A DNA stretch of 64,000 bases from Gaiellaceae bacterium (GCA_036258155.1 DATAEF010000007.1:16250-80249), one strand, 5' to 3'. Shown: positions 6,304 to 14,802, numbered from the stretch's first letter. Program-made: numbers and translations. Notes: generated by a model not told the origin, from the letters alone.

Positions 6304-7622
6304 GAAACGACGGCGAAGAGACGCCACTCGCCCGGGACACCCTTGAGCGCTGCGGTCCCGCGATCGTCGAACTCGAGGCCGGAGCCGGCGACGAGATCTC
6401 TGACCGTGCCCGAGACGAGGACCTCGCCGGCGTTTGCCCGACTTGCGACCCTTGCTCCTATGCTGACCGCGATCCCGGCCACTTTGCCATCGGCGAGCTC
6501 GACCTCCCCGGTGTGAAGCCCCGCACGGACGTCGAGGCTCAGCGGGCGAGCGGCCTCGATGATGGCGCGTGCACAGCGAATCGCCCGGGCTGGGCCGTTG
6601 AAAGTCGCGAAGAAGCCGTCACCCGCCGTGTCCACCTCCTGACCGTCGAAGCGGGCAAGCTCGCGGCGAGCGGCTGCATGATGCTGCTCGAGCAGCTCGC
6701 TCCAGCGCCGGTCACCGACCTCAGCCGCACGGCTTGTCGAGCCGACGAGGTCGGTGAAGAGCACAGTCGTGAGAAAGCGGACCTGCGTCGTGGCCTCGCG
6801 ACGGCCCGTGAGAAACTCGCGAATCTCGGCGACCGCTGCGTCAGGGTCGAACCAGGGGACGTGCTCGCTGCCAGGGAGCTCGACGTACTGTGCTCCCGGG
6901 ATCGTCCGCGCTAGGAAACGTGCGTGCTCGACGTGGCAGACCCGATCCTCGGCCGTGTGGATGATCAGCGTCGGAACGTTGATTGCAGGTGCGACGTCAC
7001 GCACGTCGATGCCGAAGGCCATGCGCATGAACGCCGCTGCCGAGCCGGGCGTTGCGGAGTTGATCTCCACGCGACTGAACCACTCGCGTGCCCACTCCTG
7101 ACCCATGAGGCTGGGAGCGACCGCGTAGATGTACGTACCGCTGCCCCAGTTCTCGGTCACCGAGGACATCGATGCCTCGAAACCCTCCCTCGTGTCCTCG
7201 CCCCACGGCCACTCGTCGTCCACCAACTCTCGAACCTCTGCCCCTTGAAGGATCAGCGCGACGGTCCTATTGGGATGCGCGGCCGCGAACAGCATCGAGA
7301 GAGGGCCGCCCTCGGACTCTCCCATAAGGGCGGCACGCTCGCTCCCGACAGCGTCCATGACGGCGCGGACGTCGTCCATCCGCTCTTCGAGCGGGACAGC
7401 GCCCGGCACACGATCCGACATACCCATGCCGCGCTTGTCGAACAGGATGAGGCGAGTGAACTCTCCGAGCCGCTCGCAGTATCTGCGGAAGGCTGGGAGA
7501 TCCCAGTACACGTCGAGGTGGGTGACCCATCCCTGCACATAGACGAGATCGATTGCACCTTCGCCCACCACGCGATAGGCGATGTCGGCGTCGCGGCTAC
7601 GCGCAAAGCGCACTTCTGTCAC
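6300..7622 (-). CDS. alpha/beta-hydrolase domain fused to a class III adenylate/guanylate cyclase domain (LipJ-like architecture)
   Basis: N-terminal part: LILFDKRGMGMSDR...LMGESEGGP (hydrolase nucleophile elbow). C-terminal part: VLFTDLVGSTSRAAEVGDRRW...DTAGDGFFATFNGP...VRAGLHTGEVE (cyclase catalytic domain). The start was set to GTG 7622 to avoid overlap with dnaE2. Confidence 0.8.
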   Translation of the reverse strand: MTEVRFARSRDADIAYRVVGEGAIDLVYVQGWVTHLDVYWDLPAFRRYCERLGEFTRLILFDKRGMGMSDRVPGAVPLEERMDDVRAVMDAVGSERAALMGESEGGPLSMLFAAAHPNRTVALILQGAEVRELVDDEWPWGEDTREGFEASMSSVTENWGSGTYIYAVAPSLMGQEWAREWFSRVEINSATPGSAAAFMRMAFGIDVRDVAPAINVPTLIIHTAEDRVCHVEHARFLARTIPGAQYVELPGSEHVPWFDPDAAVAEIREFLTGRREATTQVRFLTTVLFTDLVGSTSRAAEVGDRRWSELLEQHHAAARRELARFDGQEVDTAGDGFFATFNGPARAIRCARAIIEAARPLSLDVRAGLHTGEVELADGKVAGIAVSIGARVASRANAGEVLVSGTVRDLVAGSGLEFDDRGTAALKGVPGEWRLFAVVS

Positions 7623-7653
7623 GGGACAAGGTTCGCCATGACCCGGGATATCG

Positions 7654-10600
7654 TCAACTACGACGGCCGAAGGAGTGGGGTCGCGGGAGCGACTCCCACA
7701 CGGTTTCGTTGTCAGCAACCTGGCGCGCGAGCGGGCCGAGCGACTCGAGCTCGGAGACGAGGACGTTGCGGTTCTCCCCGACCCGCTCGTAGCGCCCGCG
7801 CGCGAGGACGAGCGGCTCGGCTCGCACCGTCGCGCGATGCCGTTCGTAAACGTGCGGCTGCACGATCAGGTTCACCTGGCCGTGCTCGTCCTCGAGGAGC
7901 ATGAAGACGATCCCGTTCGCGGTCGACGGTCGCTGACGCGCGACCGTCATCCCCGCGACAGCCACGTGCCGACCGTGCCGCTGCTCGTGGAGTTCCGCGC
8001 TCGAGAGCGTCTTCGGGGGTAAGTGCGGGCGGAGGAGCGCAAGCGGGTGCGTCCCGACCGACATTCCCGTGTGCTTGTAGTCCGCCAGCATGCGCTCCCA
8101 GCGCGTCAGGTCGCGGAGCGAGGGTGTCTCGGCTGTCGGCTCGAGGGAGAGCGGGAGCTGCTTCGCTTCGCCTCCCGTCCCAGGCACCGACTGCTCCCGA
8201 AAGACGAGTCCGAGCTCCCAGAGGAGCTCTCGCCGCGGGAGGTTGAGGCCGTCACAGGCACCGCCTTTGACGAGCGCCTCGAGCTCGTCGCGAGACAACG
8301 GCGCCCGGCGGGCAAGGTCGGCTATGCCTCGGAACGACCCATGTGCCTTGCGCTCGGCAACGAGCGCCTCCGCCTCGTTCTCTCCCACCGAGGAGATGTA
8401 CGAGATGCCGATACGGACGCCGCTGTCCTCGATCACGCACCTGGCGGCACTCAGGTTGACGTCGGCAGGGCGCACGTCCACCCCATGCCGCTGCGCATCG
8501 CGAACGAGCGTCGCGGGCGGGTAGAAGCCCATCGGCTGCGCGTTCAGGAGCGCACAGAGGAACTCCGCCGGGTGGTAGTGCCTCAGCCACTGCGACTGGT
8601 AGGCGAGCAAACCGAACGCCGCGGCATGGGCTTTGGGAAAGCCGAAGCCGGAGAACCCGACGAGCTTGTCGAAGACCATGTCCGCCGTCTCCATGTCGAC
8701 TCCCTTCTCCCCCGCACCAACGACGAAGCGCCCGCGATACGCCTCGAGCGCGTCGTGACTTCGCTTGCGGCTCATCGCCCTCCGCAGCCCCTCCGCCTCC
8801 CCCACTGTGAATCCGGCGAGTGCGATCGCGACTTCCAGCACCTGGTCCTGGAAGACGACGACACCGAACGTCGAGCGCAGCGGTTCGCGCAGGAGCTCGT
8901 GGTCGACGGGCCAGACGTAGGACGGGTCCTCGCGCAGTCGCTGCCGCGCGTCGATGTACGGATGCACCGCCTTTCCCTGGATCGGTCCCGGCCGGACGAG
9001 CGCGACCTGCACCGTGAGGTCGTCGAGGTTCTCCGGCTTCGTCCGCAGGAGGCTCTGCATCTGCGCGCGGCTCTCGATCTGGAACGCGCCGACCGTGTCC
9101 GCCCGCTGGATCTCGTCGAAGACCGCGGCGTCGTCGAAAGGGATGCGCGACAGGTCGATCACCTCGTCGTGCGTCCGTGCGATCTGCTCGACGCAGTCCT
9201 CGACCGCGGAGAGCATTCCGAGGCCGAGCAGGTCGATCTTGAGGAACCCCGCATCGGCGCAGGAGTCCTTGTCCCACTGGCAGAGCTGGCGACCCGCCAT
9301 CGCCGCAGGCTGCACCGGTACGAGCTCGATGAGCGGCCGGGTGGAGACGATCATCCCGCCCGGGTGCTGCGAGACGTGGCGCGGCAGGCCCGCGATCTCT
9401 CCCGCGAGCCAGGCGAACGCGCGCCAGCGCCGCGACTCGAGCTTCCGCCCGCCGTCGGGAAGCCGCGCGACCTCCTCTCCCACCCGCCGTGCGTCCCAGC
9501 CGTCGGAAAGCCGAGCGAGCCGCTCGAGCTCGGCGAACGGGAGCCCGAGCGCCTTGCCGACGTCGCGGATCGCGCCGCGCGAACGGTAGGTCGCGAAACT
9601 CGCGACGAGCGCCGCATGCTCACGCCCGTAGCGCTCGGTGACCGCGACGATGAGCTTCTCCCGAATGTCGCGCGGGAAGTCGAGGTCGATGTCGGGTACG
9701 GAAGCGAGCTCGCGGTTGAGGAAGCGCCCGAGCGAGAGCTCGTTCGAGACCGGGTCGACGTGCGAGAGGCCGGTGAGGTAACAGACGATCGAGCCGACAG
9801 AGCTCCCCCGTCCGCGCCCAGGCGGGAGGAAGCTCCTCGGGGAATCGAGACCGCGCACCTCACGCGCCGCCTCGCGGGCGAGCTCGAGCACCTCGTGATG
9901 GAGGAGGAAGAATCCGGCGAGCCCGAGCTCGTCGATCAGCCGCAGCTCGTCCTCCAGGCGTGCGCGCGCCTTCCTTCTCAACAGTCTGTCGCAAGCCGGG
10001 TAGCGCTCGTCGATTGCGCGCCGGCAGATCGTCGCGAGCTGGCGGATCGCCGGCTCCTCGCCGTCGGAGAAGTCGGGGTAGTGGTAGCCGAGCTCCTCCG
10101 TCAGGTCGAACTCGAGCCGCTCGGCGAGGATCGCGCTTCGTTCCGCGGCGGCTCGGTCGAAGGAGAAGCGCTCGAGCGTCTCCGCGGGCGAGCGCAAGTA
10201 GCTCTCCCGGTTCCCGCGCCGCTCGGGCTCACAGCCCTCGAGTGACGTCCGGCAGCGAATCGCGACGAGGACGTCCTGCAGCAGCGTACGCCGCGGGTGG
10301 TGGGAATGGACGTCGCCGGTCGCGACCGTATCGACCCCGAGGTGCTCGGCGAGGTCGCGCAGGAGGGCTAGCCGCCGCGCGTCTCCCCGCTCGAAAGGCC
10401 GTTGCAGCTCGACGAGGAAGCGCTCGCGGCCGAACACCGCCGCAAGAACTGCAGCGGCATTCGGGTCCACGACCCCCAGTCCACGACGCGCGCAGCCGGA
10501 GAGGCAGACGAGGCCTTCGCTCAGCTCGCTCACGAGCTCGAGCGACACTGAAGGAGGGAGCGGCTCCCGGTCCTCCCGTCCTGCCCGGCGCGTTCCCGCA

Positions 10601-10956
10601 TGGGCGGCGGTGAGCAGGCGGCAGAGGTTCGCGTACCCGCGCCTCGACTCGACGAGCAGTGTCACATGAGCACCGCCTGTTCCCGCTCCACTGCCGGCAA
10701 AGCCGGCACCTCCGCTAGTGGGCGGCTCCGTCGAGCCTACGCCGCTGAGCGTCATCTCGGCGCCGGTGATCGGCCGCACGCCGAGCCCCTTCGCCGCATG
10801 CGCGAACTCGAGGGAGCCGTAGATGCCGTCGTGGTCGGTGAGTGCGAGCGCCCCGTACCCGAGCTCGGCCGCGCGGGCGGCGAGCTCCTCAGGCTGCGAC
10901 GCTCCGTCGAGAAACGAATAGGCCGAGTGACAGTGCAGCTCCACGTACCCGACCAT
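7654..10956 (-). CDS. dnaE2: error-prone DNA polymerase III alpha-type subunit DnaE2 (ImuC)
   Basis: 1100 aa. PHP domain MVGYVELHCHSAYSFLDGASQPEELAARAAELGYGALALTDHDGIYG. The Pol III alpha core runs throughout and there is no tau/beta C-terminal extension. imuB lies nearby. Confidence 0.9.
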   Translation of the reverse strand: MVGYVELHCHSAYSFLDGASQPEELAARAAELGYGALALTDHDGIYGSLEFAHAAKGLGVRPITGAEMTLSGVGSTEPPTSGGAGFAGSGAGTGGAHVTLLVESRRGYANLCRLLTAAHAGTRRAGREDREPLPPSVSLELVSELSEGLVCLSGCARRGLGVVDPNAAAVLAAVFGRERFLVELQRPFERGDARRLALLRDLAEHLGVDTVATGDVHSHHPRRTLLQDVLVAIRCRTSLEGCEPERRGNRESYLRSPAETLERFSFDRAAAERSAILAERLEFDLTEELGYHYPDFSDGEEPAIRQLATICRRAIDERYPACDRLLRRKARARLEDELRLIDELGLAGFFLLHHEVLELAREAAREVRGLDSPRSFLPPGRGRGSSVGSIVCYLTGLSHVDPVSNELSLGRFLNRELASVPDIDLDFPRDIREKLIVAVTERYGREHAALVASFATYRSRGAIRDVGKALGLPFAELERLARLSDGWDARRVGEEVARLPDGGRKLESRRWRAFAWLAGEIAGLPRHVSQHPGGMIVSTRPLIELVPVQPAAMAGRQLCQWDKDSCADAGFLKIDLLGLGMLSAVEDCVEQIARTHDEVIDLSRIPFDDAAVFDEIQRADTVGAFQIESRAQMQSLLRTKPENLDDLTVQVALVRPGPIQGKAVHPYIDARQRLREDPSYVWPVDHELLREPLRSTFGVVVFQDQVLEVAIALAGFTVGEAEGLRRAMSRKRSHDALEAYRGRFVVGAGEKGVDMETADMVFDKLVGFSGFGFPKAHAAAFGLLAYQSQWLRHYHPAEFLCALLNAQPMGFYPPATLVRDAQRHGVDVRPADVNLSAARCVIEDSGVRIGISYISSVGENEAEALVAERKAHGSFRGIADLARRAPLSRDELEALVKGGACDGLNLPRRELLWELGLVFREQSVPGTGGEAKQLPLSLEPTAETPSLRDLTRWERMLADYKHTGMSVGTHPLALLRPHLPPKTLSSAELHEQRHGRHVAVAGMTVARQRPSTANGIVFMLLEDEHGQVNLIVQPHVYERHRATVRAEPLVLARGRYERVGENRNVLVSELESLGPLARQVADNETVWESLPRPHSFGRRS
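10674..10745 (-). repeat. 72-nt palindromic repeat, copy A, translated in frame inside dnaE2
   Basis: The reverse complement is 65/72 identical to 11446..11517 by hand alignment. It encodes SGVGSTEPPTSGGAGFAGSGAGTG between ITGAEMTL and AHVTLLVESRRGY. Confidence 0.75.
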
Positions 10957-10970
10957 TAGGCTGAGACTCC

Positions 10971-11921
10971 TTGGAGCAGGTGCTTCCCGCGATCCGCGAG
11001 GGCGAGCGCATCGCCGGCGACGGCGAGCTCGGTGTCACGCTTCTCGCCGACCTCGACGAGATCGGGATCGTGGACGTTCGGGCGAAGCCGAGCGACTCGA
11101 CCCCGCCTCTTCACTTCCACGAGCGCCACGCGGAGTGCTTCCTCGTCCTCGACGGTGAGATCAGGCTCCGACTCGAGGACCGCGAGCTCCAGGCCGGGCC
11201 GGAGACATGGGTCCTCGTGCCGCCGGGAGTCCTCCACACGTTCGGCGTCTCCGGGGACTCCATCGCTCACTTCCTGAACATCCACGTGCCGAGCTGCGGC
11301 TTCGGCGACTTCGTCCGTGGGCTCCACGCCGCCGAGAGCGAGGAGGAGCTGCGCGCCGTCCGAGCCGCCTTCGACCAGCAACCCGCCCCGGAGTACGCAT
11401 CGGCCGATCCCGGGCTCGTCATCCACCGCCGTGCGGGAGGATCTGGCGACGTAGGCTCGACGGAGCCGCCCAAGAGCGCAGGTGCCGGCTTTGCCGGCGC
11501 CGGAGCGGGAACAGGCGAGACGATCACGGCCCGGCCCGAACGTCGAGCGACCATACTCGTGGACGCCGACGAGCTCGTGGTGAGTGAGTTCTCCTACGGG
11601 CCCGGCGAGCGAGGGGCGAAGCTGCACGTCCATCGCCACCATGCCGACGGGTTCCTCGTCGTCGAGGGCGAGTTCACGTTTGCCTCTCGTGACGGATCGG
11701 TCGCCGGGCCGGGGGGAACACTCCTTCTCTTTCCCCCCGGCGTCGTCCACGGCTTCGACAACGACAGCTCCGCGAATGCGCGCTGCTTCAACCTCCACAT
11801 GCCGTCGAGCGGATTCGCCGACTACCTGCGCGGGCGCAATCCGGAGTTCGACCAGCACGACCCTCCGGCCGACGGCGGCGCCGACCCGGCGTCCGCGGTC
11901 GCCGTGCGTCTCCCCGAGTAG
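10971..11921 (+). CDS. bicupin protein (two cupin barrels), function unknown
   Basis: Two cupin cores: PPLHFHERHAECFLVLDGEIRLRL...LVPPGVLHTF and KLHVHRHHADGFLVVEGEFTF...LFPPGVVHGF. Each is followed by FLNIHVPSCGFGDF / FNLHMPSSGFADY. The TTG start is uncertain. Confidence 0.7.
   Translation: MEQVLPAIREGERIAGDGELGVTLLADLDEIGIVDVRAKPSDSTPPLHFHERHAECFLVLDGEIRLRLEDRELQAGPETWVLVPPGVLHTFGVSGDSIAHFLNIHVPSCGFGDFVRGLHAAESEEELRAVRAAFDQQPAPEYASADPGLVIHRRAGGSGDVGSTEPPKSAGAGFAGAGAGTGETITARPERRATILVDADELVVSEFSYGPGERGAKLHVHRHHADGFLVVEGEFTFASRDGSVAGPGGTLLLFPPGVVHGFDNDSSANARCFNLHMPSSGFADYLRGRNPEFDQHDPPADGGADPASAVAVRLPE
11446..11517 (+). repeat. 72-nt palindromic repeat, copy B, translated in frame in the inter-cupin linker
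   Basis: GCGACGTAGGCTCGACGGAGCCGCCCAAGAGCGCAGGTGCCGGCTTTGCCGGCGCCGGAGCGGGAACAGGCG encodes GDVGSTEPPKSAGAGFAGAGAGTG. It contains the hairpin GGTGCCGGC-TTT-GCCGGC. Confidence 0.75.
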
Positions 11922-11930
11922 GGTGACGAC

Positions 11931-12224
11931 ATGACCTGGGAGGAGCTCGTCGCAGATGTGACCGCACGGCATCCGCTCAAGGAGTCGAAGATGTTCGGGA
12001 TGCCATGCCTGAAGCGAGAGAACGGCAAGGTCGTCGCCGGTCACTGGAAGGATGGCGGTCTCACGGTCAAGCTCACGGACGAGGCGGCCCGCGAGCAGGC
12101 GCTCACGCTCCCCGGCGTCGAACTCTTCGATCCCGGCATGGGCCGCGTCATGCGCGAGTGGGTGCTCGTGCCCGCTTCGCAGTCCGGCGAGTGGAAGCGG
12201 CTCGTCGAGCTGGCAATCGCCTAG
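11931..12224 (+). CDS. TfoX/Sxy N-terminal-domain family protein
   Basis: KESKMFGMPCLKRENGKVVAGHWKDGGLTVKLTDEAAREQALTLPGVELFDPGMGRVMREWVLVP resembles the TfoX_N pattern (MFG..., K-V/L-K, P-F...m..w..vp) as I recall it. Confidence 0.55.
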   Translation: MTWEELVADVTARHPLKESKMFGMPCLKRENGKVVAGHWKDGGLTVKLTDEAAREQALTLPGVELFDPGMGRVMREWVLVPASQSGEWKRLVELAIA

Positions 12225-12391
12225 GCGTTCTGGGTGAACCAGCAACTCTGCTCGCGATCTCGGTAGACGCAGACGTTCCGTCCGCTCTCGAGCACGACCT
12301 CGAAATAGCGCCGATCGACCGGATCCTCCGTCCACCAGCGATCGACGACACGCCACTCCTCGCGCACGAGTGTCACCTGCTCGCGGTTCAC
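12221..12391 (-). CDS. small Trp-rich protein immediately downstream of imuB, function unknown
   Basis: From GTG 12391: MNREQVTLVREEWRVVDRWWTEDPVDRRYFEVVLESGRNVCVYRDREQSCWFTQNA. The composition is protein-like, unlike the Arg/Gly-rich upstream part of track ORF 12221..12760. The start is uncertain. Confidence 0.45.
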   Translation of the reverse strand: MNREQVTLVREEWRVVDRWWTEDPVDRRYFEVVLESGRNVCVYRDREQSCWFTQNA

Positions 12392-12444
12392 GAATCGTGG
12401 CGTCTCGCCCGGCCCGGTCTCGACGAGCGCCGCCCGCGGCGCGT

Positions 12445-13638
12445 TCAGTCGTCCCGCGGAACGACGAGCGCTCGCGCTTCCGGAACCCGCGACCACGGCG
12501 CCACCTCCACCACAGCGCACACCGAACCTGTCCCCGTGCTGGCTCGCACCTGCCGCAGGCCCTCCCGCAGGCGTCCGACCGCCTCCTCCCCGGCCGGCTC
12601 CACGAGCGTGAGCTGCTGCCCCATGTGCTCCGCGAGCTCGACGGTCTCGAGGCGAAGCTCGAGGATCGGAGCAGGGAGCTCCGAGAGCTTGGGCCCGAGC
12701 GCCGCACGCAGGCGCCCCAGCTCCGCCGTCGCGTCGCGAAGGGTGATCGCCCGCCGCCACGACCCACCGTCGACGAGCCGGGCGGCCAGCGCGAGTTTTC
12801 GAAACGGCCGCCCGGCCCGTTCTGGGCGCGCGAGCAGGCGCTCGAGGAGGGAGCCGAGCGCCCGTCGCAGCGTGAGCTCGTTCGCGACGGCTTCCGGAAA
12901 GACGAGTGCCTCGACGAGCTCCGCTGCGGGCCTACGGCCGCGCACTCTTGCTCGCCGGCCTCCGTGCGCGAGCCGCCACGCATTTCTCCCCTCCACTCCG
13001 AGTCTTTCCGCGACCGCTCCTCCGGGGAGCTGTGCGAGCTCGCCGAGCCTGCGCAGGCCGAGCCCTTCTAGCTCCGCGTAGCGGTCGGAGGTCATGGGAA
13101 GCAGTGAGAGCGGCAGCGGCTCGAGGAACGCCTGCTCGTCCTGCGCCGCCACGATCAGGATCTGACCGGCACGCGCGACGCTCGCTGCCGCGAGAGCCGT
13201 GAAGCGACGTCCGGCGGCGCCGATGCGCGAGTCCCAGGTGGAGCCGACCGCGGCGAGCGCGCGCTCGAGCGCAGGCTGCACCCCCCCGTACAGTCGCTCC
13301 ACCCCCCGCGTCTCGAAGACGACAGCGCCCTGATCGGACGGATCGACCGCGAAGCCCGCGTCCTCGAGTCGCAGGAGCACCCCCTCCCACTCCCTCTCGA
13401 CGGCCGCCGGATCGCGGTCGACGAGAACGAGAGACGGGCACGTCGCGAGCGCCTCCCCCAGCCGCATCCCCGGTTTCACGCCGGCCGCCTCCGCAGCGCC
13501 GGTCACCGGGCCGAGGAGCGGCTCCTCCCCCGCCTCCGGTGCGAGCGCCGCGGGAACGAGTGCGAGCCGCGGAAGCGCGCGCAGTGCCACTCTCAGCTCG
13601 AACCCGGGAATGAGGAGGTATGCGATCACGGGGAACAC
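12445..13638 (-). CDS. imuB: Y-family-polymerase-like mutasome subunit ImuB
   Basis: MFPVIAYLLIPGFELRVALRALP...AVVFETRGVERLYGG. It looks like a Y-family fold, but the position of the catalytic D-M-D motif reads IPGFEL, as expected for non-catalytic ImuB. LexA boxes lie at its 5' end and dnaE2 is nearby. Confidence 0.8.
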   Translation of the reverse strand: MFPVIAYLLIPGFELRVALRALPRLALVPAALAPEAGEEPLLGPVTGAAEAAGVKPGMRLGEALATCPSLVLVDRDPAAVEREWEGVLLRLEDAGFAVDPSDQGAVVFETRGVERLYGGVQPALERALAAVGSTWDSRIGAAGRRFTALAAASVARAGQILIVAAQDEQAFLEPLPLSLLPMTSDRYAELEGLGLRRLGELAQLPGGAVAERLGVEGRNAWRLAHGGRRARVRGRRPAAELVEALVFPEAVANELTLRRALGSLLERLLARPERAGRPFRKLALAARLVDGGSWRRAITLRDATAELGRLRAALGPKLSELPAPILELRLETVELAEHMGQQLTLVEPAGEEAVGRLREGLRQVRASTGTGSVCAVVEVAPWSRVPEARALVVPRDD

Positions 13639-13661
13639 ATGTTCTATACGAACACATGTTC
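13633..13661. promoter_or_regulatory. two tandem LexA (SOS) boxes, GAACACATGTTC x2
   Basis: GAACACATGTTC occurs at 13633-13644 and 13650-13661. Both are perfect matches to the GAAC-N4-GTTC consensus of Gram-positive/actinobacterial LexA. The first overlaps the imuB GTG start. Confidence 0.75.
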
Positions 13662-13670
13662 TCCTGTCAA
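13643..13670 (-). promoter_or_regulatory. putative sigma-A-type promoter of imuB (TTGACA-16 nt-TATAGA)
   Basis: The minus strand reads TTGACAGGAGAACATGTGTTCGTATAGAACATGTG. The -35 is a perfect TTGACA and the -10-like hexamer is TATAGA. The GTG start lies about 5 nt downstream. Confidence 0.5.
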
Positions 13671-13690
13671 GCGAAGCCGTGTACCTCGGA

Positions 13691-14050
13691 CTAAACGCGC
13701 TGCAGGTGCGTGTCCCTGAAAGCGGTCGGGTACTTGAGCCCGTAGCCGAGCAGGCGGTCCAGGCCGATATGCGCGACCCAGATCAGGGCGATCTGCGTCG
13801 CGAGGCTCGATTCGCCGAGGATGCCTGCGACACCGAGGGCGATCGGCAGCGTGTACGTGTGCACGACGTCGTACGTGAGCGCGCCTATACGCGGACCACC
13901 GAGGTAGCCCATCATCGAGAGGTCGGGCGCGAGGAACAGGACGAGGAGGAGAAGCCAGCCGTAGCTCGCGTCGAAGTAGAGGACGATGGCGCCGGTCAGC
14001 ACCGCGAGTCCCTCCAGGTGCAGCAGCCGTCGAGGCAGGTGCTCCAGCAT
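13691..14050 (-). CDS. DUF4260-like small integral membrane protein
   Basis: 119 aa: LLHLEGLAVLTGAIVLYFDASYGWLLLLVLFLAPDLSMMGYLGGPRIGALTYDVVHTYTLP. Several TM segments. The family was recalled from memory. Confidence 0.55.
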   Translation of the reverse strand: MLEHLPRRLLHLEGLAVLTGAIVLYFDASYGWLLLLVLFLAPDLSMMGYLGGPRIGALTYDVVHTYTLPIALGVAGILGESSLATQIALIWVAHIGLDRLLGYGLKYPTAFRDTHLQRV

Positions 14051-14802
14051 CAGGTCGCTCCTCTCTTCTCAGCGCGGAAACACTGAGTGGCATAGGCGAG
14101 GCGGACGCCGCCTCGCCCGGCCGTCTCGTCGTAGAGCGCCCCGACCGCATCCAGGACCGGCTCGCGATCAGCGGGCGGAAGCTTCGCGCAGTAGCTCCGC
14201 GAGAGGACGAGGTCGAGAAGCCCGTCCCGATCCAGCACCTGCTCGAATGCGAACTCCGAGACCTCGACCGGGCCGAACAGCCCATTCGACTCGAGTACGG
14301 GGAAGACGTCGGTCTCCTGGACCGTCTCGTTCCCGATGATCGCGGAGAGGCGCGCCATCCACGGGTCGCGGTCGTCACGAGAGTTCCAAACGAGCGCAAG
14401 CCGTCCGCCGCCTGTCCGAAGAACCCGCGCTATCTCTGGAAGCGCAACGGCGTGGTCGAACCAGTGGAAGGCCTGTCCGCAGGTGACGACGTCCGCCGAC
14501 GCGTCCGACAGCGGAATCGACTCGGCGCTCCCTGCGAGTGCCCTCACACCGGGAAGAGCGGCCTCGAGCTCGGCCCGCATCTCGGCGAGCGGCTCGACTG
14601 CGGTCACGCGGTGCCCGATGGCGACGAGCCCCCGTGTCAGCTTTCCGGTGCCTGCGCCGAGGTCGACGACATCGCACGGCGGGTCACCGGCAAGCCAGCG
14701 AACGGCCTCCTCCGGGTACCCGGGGCGTCCGCGCTCGTACGCGTCCGCGACCTTCGCGAACGAGGACGGCGGACCACGTCGCTCGTCCCGATGCACGACC
14801 AT
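14050..14802 (-). CDS. class I SAM-dependent methyltransferase
   Basis: From the internal ATG: MVVHRDERRGPPSSFAKVADAYERGRPGYPEEAV...DVVDLGAGTGKLT (motif I)...VTCGQAFHWFD...GGRLALVWN. Confidence 0.8.
   Translation of the reverse strand: MVVHRDERRGPPSSFAKVADAYERGRPGYPEEAVRWLAGDPPCDVVDLGAGTGKLTRGLVAIGHRVTAVEPLAEMRAELEAALPGVRALAGSAESIPLSDASADVVTCGQAFHWFDHAVALPEIARVLRTGGGRLALVWNSRDDRDPWMARLSAIIGNETVQETDVFPVLESNGLFGPVEVSEFAFEQVLDRDGLLDLVLSRSYCAKLPPADREPVLDAVGALYDETAGRGGVRLAYATQCFRAEKRGAT

Follow-up and report, generated by a model that had tools for sequence, protein, structure and literature searches.

Mycobacterial interspersed repetitive units (MIRUs) are sequences of 40–100 bp located between co-directional operon genes, with open reading frames (ORFs) whose ends overlap those of their neighbors by 4 nt (Supply et al. 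1997, as recounted in PMC12548453 and PMC3184786); in the same accounts these start/stop overlaps are read as translational coupling. Rickettsia palindromic elements (RPEs), by the account of Ogata et al. 2000 contained in PMC10969869, are palindromic sequences of about 100–150 bp that are present in frame in many genes of Alphaproteobacteria. Here we describe a set of Gaiellales translation-compatible interspersed repeats that apparently join MIRU-like and RPE-like behavior. They came to light through two copies of a 72-nt sequence in a 64,000-nt stretch of DNA from a Gaiellaceae bacterium (GCA_036258155.1 DATAEF010000007.1:16250-80249), the whole of which is referred to here as the window; one copy is in frame in dnaE2 and the other is in frame in a neighboring gene coding for a protein with two cupin domains (bicupin). 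We consider it probable, at roughly 85%, that both copies are separate members of a dispersed, translation-compatible family of 66–74-nt units of the Gaiellales/Thermoleophilia that is tolerated either at gene junctions or in frame within genes.

The window copies and their host genes

The two copies occupy positions 10674-10745 on the minus strand and 11446-11517 on the plus strand and, when read in the same sense, are identical at 65 of 72 positions. The likeness stops at both edges, the flanks are unrelated, and each copy begins at codon position 2 of its host ORF, such that the two have one common element frame. An earlier note, made from the sequence alone, had reported two 72-nt copies at these positions with the same identity, unrelated flanks and a common element frame, and recomputation gave the same values. 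A repeat search of the window returns the pair as inverted arms of 72 nt with 90% complementarity and a spacing of 700 nt, and blastn-short found no third copy in the 64 kb. The seven differences between the copies are confined to four codons and alter the amino acid each time, none of them being synonymous. The dnaE2 copy encodes SGVGSTEPPTSGGAGFAGSGAGTG and the 72-nt bicupin copy encodes GDVGSTEPPKSAGAGFAGAGAGTG.

The dnaE2 ORF (7654-10956, minus strand; 1100 aa) matches the NCBIfam 'error-prone DNA polymerase' family at 961 bits and contains the Pfam domains PHP (residues 6–186), DNA_pol3_alpha, finger and HHH_6. The bicupin ORF (10971-11921, plus strand; 316 aa) is divergent from dnaE2, and its insert is flanked by the two Cupin_2 stretches, which places it in the inter-cupin linker just as the earlier note had it. 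Comparison with empty alleles defines the inserted DNA more closely. In dnaE2, 73 nt (10674-10746, minus strand) within a loop of the PHP domain stand in place of the 7 nt GACGGCG of contig L127, and in the bicupin gene 73 nt (11445-11517, plus strand), encoding GDVGSTEPPKSAGAGFAGAGAGT, stand in place of the 7 nt GAGGGCG of contigs L126 and L127. The real net gain in both genes is 66 nt, or 22 codons, and not the 72 nt that had been supposed. An identical DnaE2 together with the same repeat pair is present on contigs L001 and L002, which derive from two independent Joint Genome Institute (JGI) metagenome assemblies, and an artefact of a single assembly, a possibility raised in the earlier note, is thereby excluded. 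A 675-aa ORF on the opposite strand is without a family match and was set aside as spurious.

A dispersed repeat family

Scanning one genome per GTDB species with the pattern GTAGGCTCGACGGAG-N12–18-GGNGCCGGC identifies at least 120 loci, nearly all of them labelled as Gaiellaceae, Gaiella, Gaiellales, Thermoleophilia or unclassified Actinomycetota metagenome-assembled genomes (MAGs); the further copies anticipated from the window pair are thus found. An nhmmer profile resolves 165 units in 136 arrays within about 1 Mb of sequence around these loci, and the units range from 66 to 74 nt in length. Arrays have one unit (107), two (13), three (5) or four (2), with periods that are mostly 68–69 nt. 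Beyond the arrays that triggered retrieval, another seven are located in 0.88 Mb of flanking sequence, which corresponds, as a rough estimate, to about 8 per Mb. No copies were found in viral contigs or in PLSDB plasmids. Judged by these sequences, the family is dispersed, polymorphic and confined to one lineage, and almost all of its copies would keep translation continuous. One copy (L067:876-950) is on a contig of a MAG labelled Verrucomicrobiota; all of the other matches listed are from Actinomycetota, and this contig is therefore likely to be mis-binned.

Rfam, searched in both gathering and E-value modes, contains no matching family and gives only chance matches to microRNAs, and a search of the literature for the motif, the peptide or a Gaiella repetitive element found no earlier description, in agreement with the suspicion that such an element had not been described in high-GC Actinomycetota. 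A protein search with two joined peptides, in which 33 candidates were scored, did not have the window host proteins among its results and is not the basis of the counts given here. It revealed short predicted proteins with SGVGSTEPPKSGGAGFAGAGAG at the extreme N- or C-terminus or in tandem, as well as SGVGSTEPPKSGGAGFAGAGAG joined to unrelated proteins, including PurE, an enoyl-CoA hydratase (Gaiellaceae MAG) and a membrane protein. For two of these matches the DNA places the unit exactly at a gene junction, with a GTG overlapping the upstream stop codon (GTGA) at the unit start.

Location at stop/start junctions

The arrangement of the units relative to genes was evaluated with a phase test based on G+C content at third codon positions (GC3). 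Flanks were usable for 128 arrays; 105 of these are co-oriented with the genes on both sides, just 4 run antisense to the two, and intragenic copies are a minority (about 7 of 128 arrays). For the 103 co-oriented arrays, the upstream stop codon is TGA in 88 and is situated at unit position −1 or 0 in 47, and at least 47 of the 103 form complete chains of NTGA, a 23–25-codon ORF and a second NTGA, in which an ATG, GTG or TTG overlaps the stop. Locus L017 is a perfect chain of four 23-codon ORFs. Tandem arrays (e.g. L017, L042) repeat the whole unit and sit exactly between two genes; the candidate explanation that they are CRISPR arrays was rejected, as the whole 68–72-nt period is repeated and there is no variable spacer. 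Fusions occur as well: in 24 arrays the unit continues in frame into the downstream ORF, as an N-terminal extension of it, and about 12 have the unit joined in frame to the C-terminus of the upstream ORF.

Empty junctions are ordinary 4-nt overlaps, as in L069 (...CGGTCATGACG...) and L030 (...GAAGTGACC...). Relative to the empty L069, L107 has one 68-nt unit directly after the NTGA, recreating CGGACATGAGCC on either side, and L003, compared with the empty L030, is longer by 66 nt, which follow the GTGA start of purE in frame. The repeats at the edges of filled sites (CGGACATGAGCC in L107 and GGCG at both edges of each window copy) overlap the unit's own ends, and a target duplication is therefore inseparable from the sequence of the unit itself.

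A canonical unit lies between co-directional genes in the same orientation as these, beginning at an upstream stop codon that is overlapped by an ATG or GTG (NTGA), and the second NTGA, with which the unit ends, supplies the start codon for the next unit or for the downstream gene. This organization suggests a way in which units may be accommodated within operons. By analogy with MIRUs, as portrayed in PMC12548453 and PMC3184786, ribosomes could translate each 23–25-codon mini-ORF by termination-reinitiation, and on the same analogy insertion of a unit would hardly disturb operon expression.

Filled and empty alleles

The repeats are polymorphic among close relatives. Contig L126, with about 98% DNA identity to the window, is without the bicupin copy and keeps the dnaE2 copy, and L127, which is 95–97% identical to the window, has neither, indicating that both insertions in the window are of recent date and unstable. 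The 120 closest N-terminal homologues of DnaE2 include about 90 with a short loop (TL-DG-GAHVTLL) and about 25 with the module at the same place; one of the filled orthologues has two tandem units, several are decayed, and the boundaries vary by 1–2 codons between lineages. In solved Pol III alpha structures, the counterpart of the dnaE2 site is a PHP-domain loop whose length varies, and so both the orthologues and the structures agree with the variable loop that the earlier note placed at this point. Of 120 bicupin homologues, 37 have the module in the linker and about 75 are empty; some have two units, the second of which is sometimes in another frame (HRRRLDGAG...). Taken together, orthologous sites carry 0, 1, 2 or 3 units.

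Neighbor-joining (NJ) gene trees were built without the insert columns. Presence and absence of the module require 25 parsimony changes on the bicupin tree (shuffled mean 31.6) and 24 on the DnaE2 tree (shuffled mean 22.8), and several independent pairs of filled and empty sequences differ by just 2–6% outside of the insert. The near-random parsimony and the closeness of these pairs characterize the two sites as hot spots of repeated gain and/or loss, and not as single old insertions.

There are other departures in these two genes. In L044 (2320-2647) the first cupin domain is missing (about 470 nt, corresponding to window 10971-11440), and a unit is located at the deletion junction, right after an ATG. 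Many DnaE2 homologues on long contigs are called as PHP-only fragments of about 250–460 aa (for example P0013, of 321 aa on a 344-kb contig, and P0031, of 304 aa on a 269-kb contig), which suggests that frameshifts or faulty gene calls affect long-read MAGs, or else that the genes are truly split.

Structure of the unit

An alignment of 127 non-redundant units made with MAFFT reveals a common plan. A covarying stem of 5 bp closes an invariant loop of 14 nt, GTAGGCTCGACGGA; the unit also has an AGGAG-like spacer, a G+C-rich hairpin of 9 bp and, about 5 nt upstream of its terminal ATG, a GGAGCGGG tail. The invariant core of the unit is CGTAGGCTCGACGGAG. The first stem (stem 1) is formed by the 4–5 nt on each side of the core, outside of the search pattern, and is 92% paired, compared with 16–52% for slid controls. 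None of 500 shuffles reaches the covariation score observed, and four of the pairs are each represented by 3–6 pair types (one is CG in 46 units, GC in 35 and AU in 22; another is GC in 75, CG in 36 and AU in 6). RNAalifold recovers stem 1 independently. The second stem (stem 2) is 97% paired over the 127 units and has many G·U pairs (one pair is UG in 67 and CG in 47) that would be A·C mismatches on the other strand. The combination of a covarying stem and an invariant loop implies that the unit is probably recognized by some factor, on either single-stranded DNA or mRNA.

Both stem-loops can be located in the window copies. In the bicupin copy, stem-loop 1 (11446-11469, plus strand) is composed of GCGAC (11446-11450, with one A·C mismatch), the invariant loop (11451-11464) and GCCGC (11465-11469), and stem-loop 2 (11481-11501, plus strand) is GGTGCCGGC-TTT-GCCGGCGCC, with the 9-bp G+C-rich stem. 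In the dnaE2 copy, stem-loop 1 (10722-10745, minus strand) has the arms GCGGC and GCCGC on either side of the same loop, and in stem-loop 2 (10690-10710, minus strand; GGTGCCGGC-TTT-GCCGGCAGT) a private AGT change weakens the outer two pairs.

The earlier description of the repeat as palindromic is not sustained, in that the two window 72-mers fold no better than shuffled sequences (z-scores of +0.3 to −1.4). The hairpin GGCTC-GACG-GAGCC that it proposed (columns 15–19 and 24–28) was likewise discarded; it has no compensatory changes and 44 of the 127 units are unpaired at one of its positions, and the stem that does covary is the outer GCGGC...GCCGC. Across the 127 units the ends, GCGGCGTAGG... 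and ...GGAGCGGGNATGA, are not complementary, so there are no terminal inverted repeats, the internal hairpins not being terminal.

In-frame insertions and target sites

One subfamily, with the stem GCGGC/GCCGC and a net gain of 66 nt, has the frame SGVGSTEPPKSGGAGFAGAGAG open and is found in frame inside unrelated genes. With this frame open, the 66-nt variant can survive in coding sequence as a flexible Gly/Ala-rich insert and, if the analogy with MIRUs extends this far, it would persist within genes only at permissive loops. A Peptidase_S9 protein (L012) has two tandem units in frame, and a PaaC-like protein (L118) has an antisense in-frame copy at a site that is empty in its ortholog in L123. 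An exhaustive profile search of 1.84 billion representative proteins gave 109 carrier proteins, mostly short ones or ones in which the module is terminal; GNAT-like, YbaK-like and VanZ-like proteins have it internally, and a PAS sensor has three tandem modules near its C-terminus. The central proposal of the earlier note, that the repeat is a small one which moves or recombines and is tolerated as a Gly/Ala-rich insert in the frame of its host, is upheld by the 120 or more loci, the empty orthologues and these additional in-frame hosts.

Both targets in the window have some resemblance to the element. The bicupin target, GGAGGATCTGA/GGGCG, resembles a junction, with a Shine-Dalgarno (SD)-like GGAG followed by an out-of-frame NTGA, and in the dnaE2 target the stretch GCTCGACGG reproduces 9 nt of the element core exactly, with a GTGA 9 nt upstream. 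From these few sites we infer that targets may be picked by their likeness either to the ends of the element (SD-like GGAG and then NTGA) or to its core.

A second DnaE2 hot spot is situated about 30 aa downstream of the window site (GTRRPGRE / units / REPLPPSV). The DnaE2 fragment P0253 has three tandem units at this position and an empty first site, and units are also present here in L129:144-377 (P0004). The latter is a 589-nt contig with about 1x coverage in which the end of an unrelated gene is joined to the middle of dnaE2 through a unit, and it was rejected as a probable chimera; P0253 shows that the second site is itself real regardless. Units stand at the joins both in P0305, which combines the C-terminal part of DnaE2 with an M20-like peptidase, and in L129, which combines the end of a membrane protein with mid-dnaE2, and these are either repeat-induced assembly chimeras or real rearrangements.

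Alternative explanations

A number of points weigh against the reading of the window copies as members of a dispersed, translation-compatible family. No transposase or other mobilizing function was identified, none having been specifically searched for, and the term mobile rests on presence/absence polymorphism together with dispersal. That the mini-ORFs and the intragenic peptides are translated is deduced from the DNA alone. Partial metagenomic proteins are the material of the gene trees, which were built by NJ, and the queries by which the top-120 lists were ranked include the module, so that the filled fraction is inflated. The 15-nt core and part of stem 2 are fixed by the search pattern, such that their invariance is partly by construction; as a partial control, 10 of the 14 units that miss the pattern have no more than one mismatch in the core, and 47 of 57 orthologue inserts, located independently of it, have VGSTE unchanged. 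Inherited differences between subfamilies inflate the covariation counts, and there must be far fewer independent compensatory events. Finally, non-pattern positions at the orthologous dnaE2 site are 67–77% conserved as against 65–86% for the flanking coding DNA, and thus there is no sign of local constraint on individual intragenic copies.

Two of the rival explanations draw on the structure of the unit. It could be a functional cis-acting RNA module, for instance one at which mRNA is stabilized or processed, or a hairpin to which a protein binds so as to adjust expression across the junction between genes; selection would then favor it at every site, in place of its being a selfish repeat, and the intragenic copies would be by-products. 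Strong compensatory covariation in stem 1 around the 14-nt loop is what such a module would have, as are stem 2 G·U pairs that become A·C mismatches on the opposite strand, the co-orientation of 82% of the arrays with transcription, and SD-like motifs at a fixed distance from the terminal ATG. Nonetheless, presence and copy number (0–4) vary freely at orthologous sites, even among strains that are 95–98% identical, and intragenic copies at one site are conserved no better than their flanks; Rfam offers no matching family, the need for an open or coupled reading frame accounts for co-orientation equally well, and selection acting on master copies during mobilization can yield covariation. We therefore regard the RNA module as unlikely, and slightly more so a repetitive extragenic palindromic (REP)-type sequence mobilized on single-stranded DNA hairpins by a REP-associated tyrosine transposase (RAYT) or an IS200/IS605-like Y1 transposase. 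The core does start with GTAGG followed by the short palindrome GCTC-GACG-GAGC, and published REPs also start with GTAGG (PMC2817692); strand-specific hairpins with G·T wobbles and compensatory stem changes that separate subfamilies are also in keeping with this origin. But the GTAGG, although invariant, is within the loop of a covarying stem, the 3–5-bp palindrome following it is non-covarying with 44 of 127 units unpaired at one position, the arrays are direct tandem repeats in place of the alternating clusters, akin to bacterial interspersed mosaic elements (BIMEs), that are typical of REPs, and translated frames enclose the units, whose NTGA ends are precise. No RAYT gene was seen, no search aimed at RAYT having been made.

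The remaining two concern the origin of the window pair. The copies are in inverted orientation at a distance of 700 nt, with both 5′ ends between them, as would be the case if gene conversion, template switching, inverted duplication or another local event had derived one from the other or if they were the inverted repeats of an invertible segment across the divergent dnaE2/bicupin 5′ ends; moreover, the best match of the dnaE2 copy in the data set is the bicupin copy (0.903), and L126, with only the dnaE2 copy, is compatible with the bicupin copy being newer. We find this improbable. The two copies are 0.90 identical to one another and 0.90 and 0.94 identical to the subfamily consensus, and the bicupin copy is nearer both to the copies of other genomes (0.917) and to the consensus (0.94) than it is to its neighbor. 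The two sites have been filled independently in many other genomes (in L094 dnaE2 is filled and the bicupin gene is empty, and in L044 the reverse is true), an inversion would join unrelated protein halves, and there is no inverted arrangement in L001, L002, L126 or L127. As to whether the 24-aa segment could be an ancient conserved peptide module, shared by descent or convergence and not inserted as DNA, its sequence VGSTEPP...GAGFAGAGAG is indeed well conserved among the orthologues that carry it, but the likeness is at the nucleotide level (65/72) with no differing codon synonymous, most orthologues and the 95–98% identical strains are precisely without the segment, and the same DNA occurs between genes, in other frames and in antisense. 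The empty alleles and the intergenic copies refute this possibility, and dispersal of a translation-compatible repeat is the reading that we prefer.

The imuB-cupin-dnaE2 cassette

A gene for an ImuB-like Y-family polymerase (12445-13638, minus strand; IMS and IMS_C domains) provides the context of the window copies and defines an imuB-cupin-dnaE2 cassette. The order of imuB, small ORFs, cupin and dnaE2 is kept across relatives, with the bicupin gene in the opposite orientation. Comparison with window 7000-14500 places five of the 120 listed scan loci (L016, L044, L094, L104 and L119) in this cassette, where the sites hit are dnaE2 site 1, the bicupin linker and the 3′ end of a 97-aa ORF near window 12220; at least four distinct unit sites are present in the cassette. 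This looks to be far above what chance would place in some 6 kb of a genome of about 3 Mb. A further reading, speculative and rather doubtful, is that the loop on the covarying stem is the site of a dedicated trans-acting factor that would steer insertion and precise loss at NTGA and its look-alikes, with the cassette hits reflecting a real mechanistic or selective link with error-prone replication. Were this so, the link might operate via template switching by ImuB/DnaE2 or via regulation of the cassette, and the family would represent a new class of mobile element that is compatible with translation and has a targeting system of its own.

The cassette has additional variable features. The start codons of dnaE2 and the bicupin gene diverge and are 14 nt apart in the window (10956-10971), or 14–17 nt when L126, L128, L016 and L094 are included, and any promoters must therefore fall within the neighboring coding sequences. 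Between these start codons, L127 (3003-3155; window 10957-10970) has an insertion of about 152 nt that is absent from the window; its terminal inverted repeats, TCTCCGGGAAGT and ACTTCCCGGAG, and the duplicated CACTAG/CTAG give it the look of a MITE (a miniature transposable element with inverted repeats), unrelated to the 72-nt family. An extra monocupin gene following the 97-aa ORF is present in L094 (7290-7730) and L016 (7637 onward) and absent from the window (about 12220); at its junction L016 has a repeat unit, and L094 has only a short remnant-like stretch, AGCGGAAGTAG...GCGGCTGAGTG.

Implications

The presence of this family in the Gaiellales indicates that the MIRU type of strategy, in which a unit is translated through at stop/start overlaps and is hidden from selection, is not confined to the mycobacteria, having originated or survived in a deep soil lineage of the Actinomycetota that is for the most part uncultured. 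The family also links intercistronic, coupled mini-ORFs of the MIRU kind with in-frame peptide insertion of the RPE kind, and one subfamily does both. Gene callers routinely absorb the unit, giving rise to spurious N- or C-terminal extensions or to 'hypothetical proteins' of 20–80 aa, and units appear to seed chimeric joins in low-coverage assemblies (L129 and possibly P0305). Because copy number and presence vary between near-identical strains, the units could be used to type Gaiellales in metagenomes, much as MIRU variable-number tandem repeats (MIRU-VNTRs) are used for tuberculosis. The repeated insertion at identical loops of a protein constitutes a natural experiment on insertion tolerance and target choice.

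Comparison with known systems

The Gaiellales repeats have features in common with several classes of small bacterial repeats. With the REPs and BIMEs of PMC2817692 they share GTAGG with a short palindrome, G+C-rich hairpins and subfamilies that differ by compensatory stem changes. REPs, however, are extragenic, untranslated and often alternating, whereas the Gaiellales units are in direct tandem, translated or coupled, and have GTAG in the loop of a covarying stem. RU-1/enterobacterial repetitive intergenic consensus (ERIC) elements and related sequences (PMC2759123), and MITEs in general, are likewise small non-autonomous repeats that extend or interrupt ORFs in frame, but they are 100–170 bp in length with terminal inverted repeats and target-site duplications, in contrast to the Gaiellales unit, which is without terminal inverted repeats. 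The RPEs, to which the earlier note had likened the window repeat, are a closer match in one respect only. On the evidence of PMC10969869, both are short repeats situated in frame in unrelated genes, where they encode a conserved and tolerated peptide, and both also have copies outside of genes; this part of the comparison stands. The Gaiellales unit differs in its size (66–74 nt), in not being palindromic overall, and in being found mainly at stop/start junctions.

It is the MIRUs that the family most resembles. Going by published descriptions of MIRUs, the two are alike in unit length and in having tens of copies per genome (at roughly 8 arrays per Mb here, itself a rough figure), in lying between co-directional operon genes in the orientation of those genes, singly or in tandem with a copy number that varies between strains, and in containing a small ORF that overlaps the stop and start codons of its neighbors by 4 nt; filled and empty sites and G+C-rich internal inverted repeats are common to both. 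In architecture, judged by the size and dispersal of the units, their orientation, the coupled ORF and the variable copy number, the Gaiellales family has the defining features of a MIRU. With hosts in the Gaiellales/Thermoleophilia it is not a MIRU in the strict sense, and the two are likened by description and not by sequence. There are also two features that the sources cited do not describe for MIRUs, namely the covarying stem around an invariant loop, and a 66-nt subfamily that occurs in frame in many genes, both sense and antisense. As the usual habitat of the units is a junction with a coupled mini-ORF, we conclude that their closest analogue is the MIRU, and that the RPE-like behavior seen in dnaE2 and the bicupin gene is a side-line.

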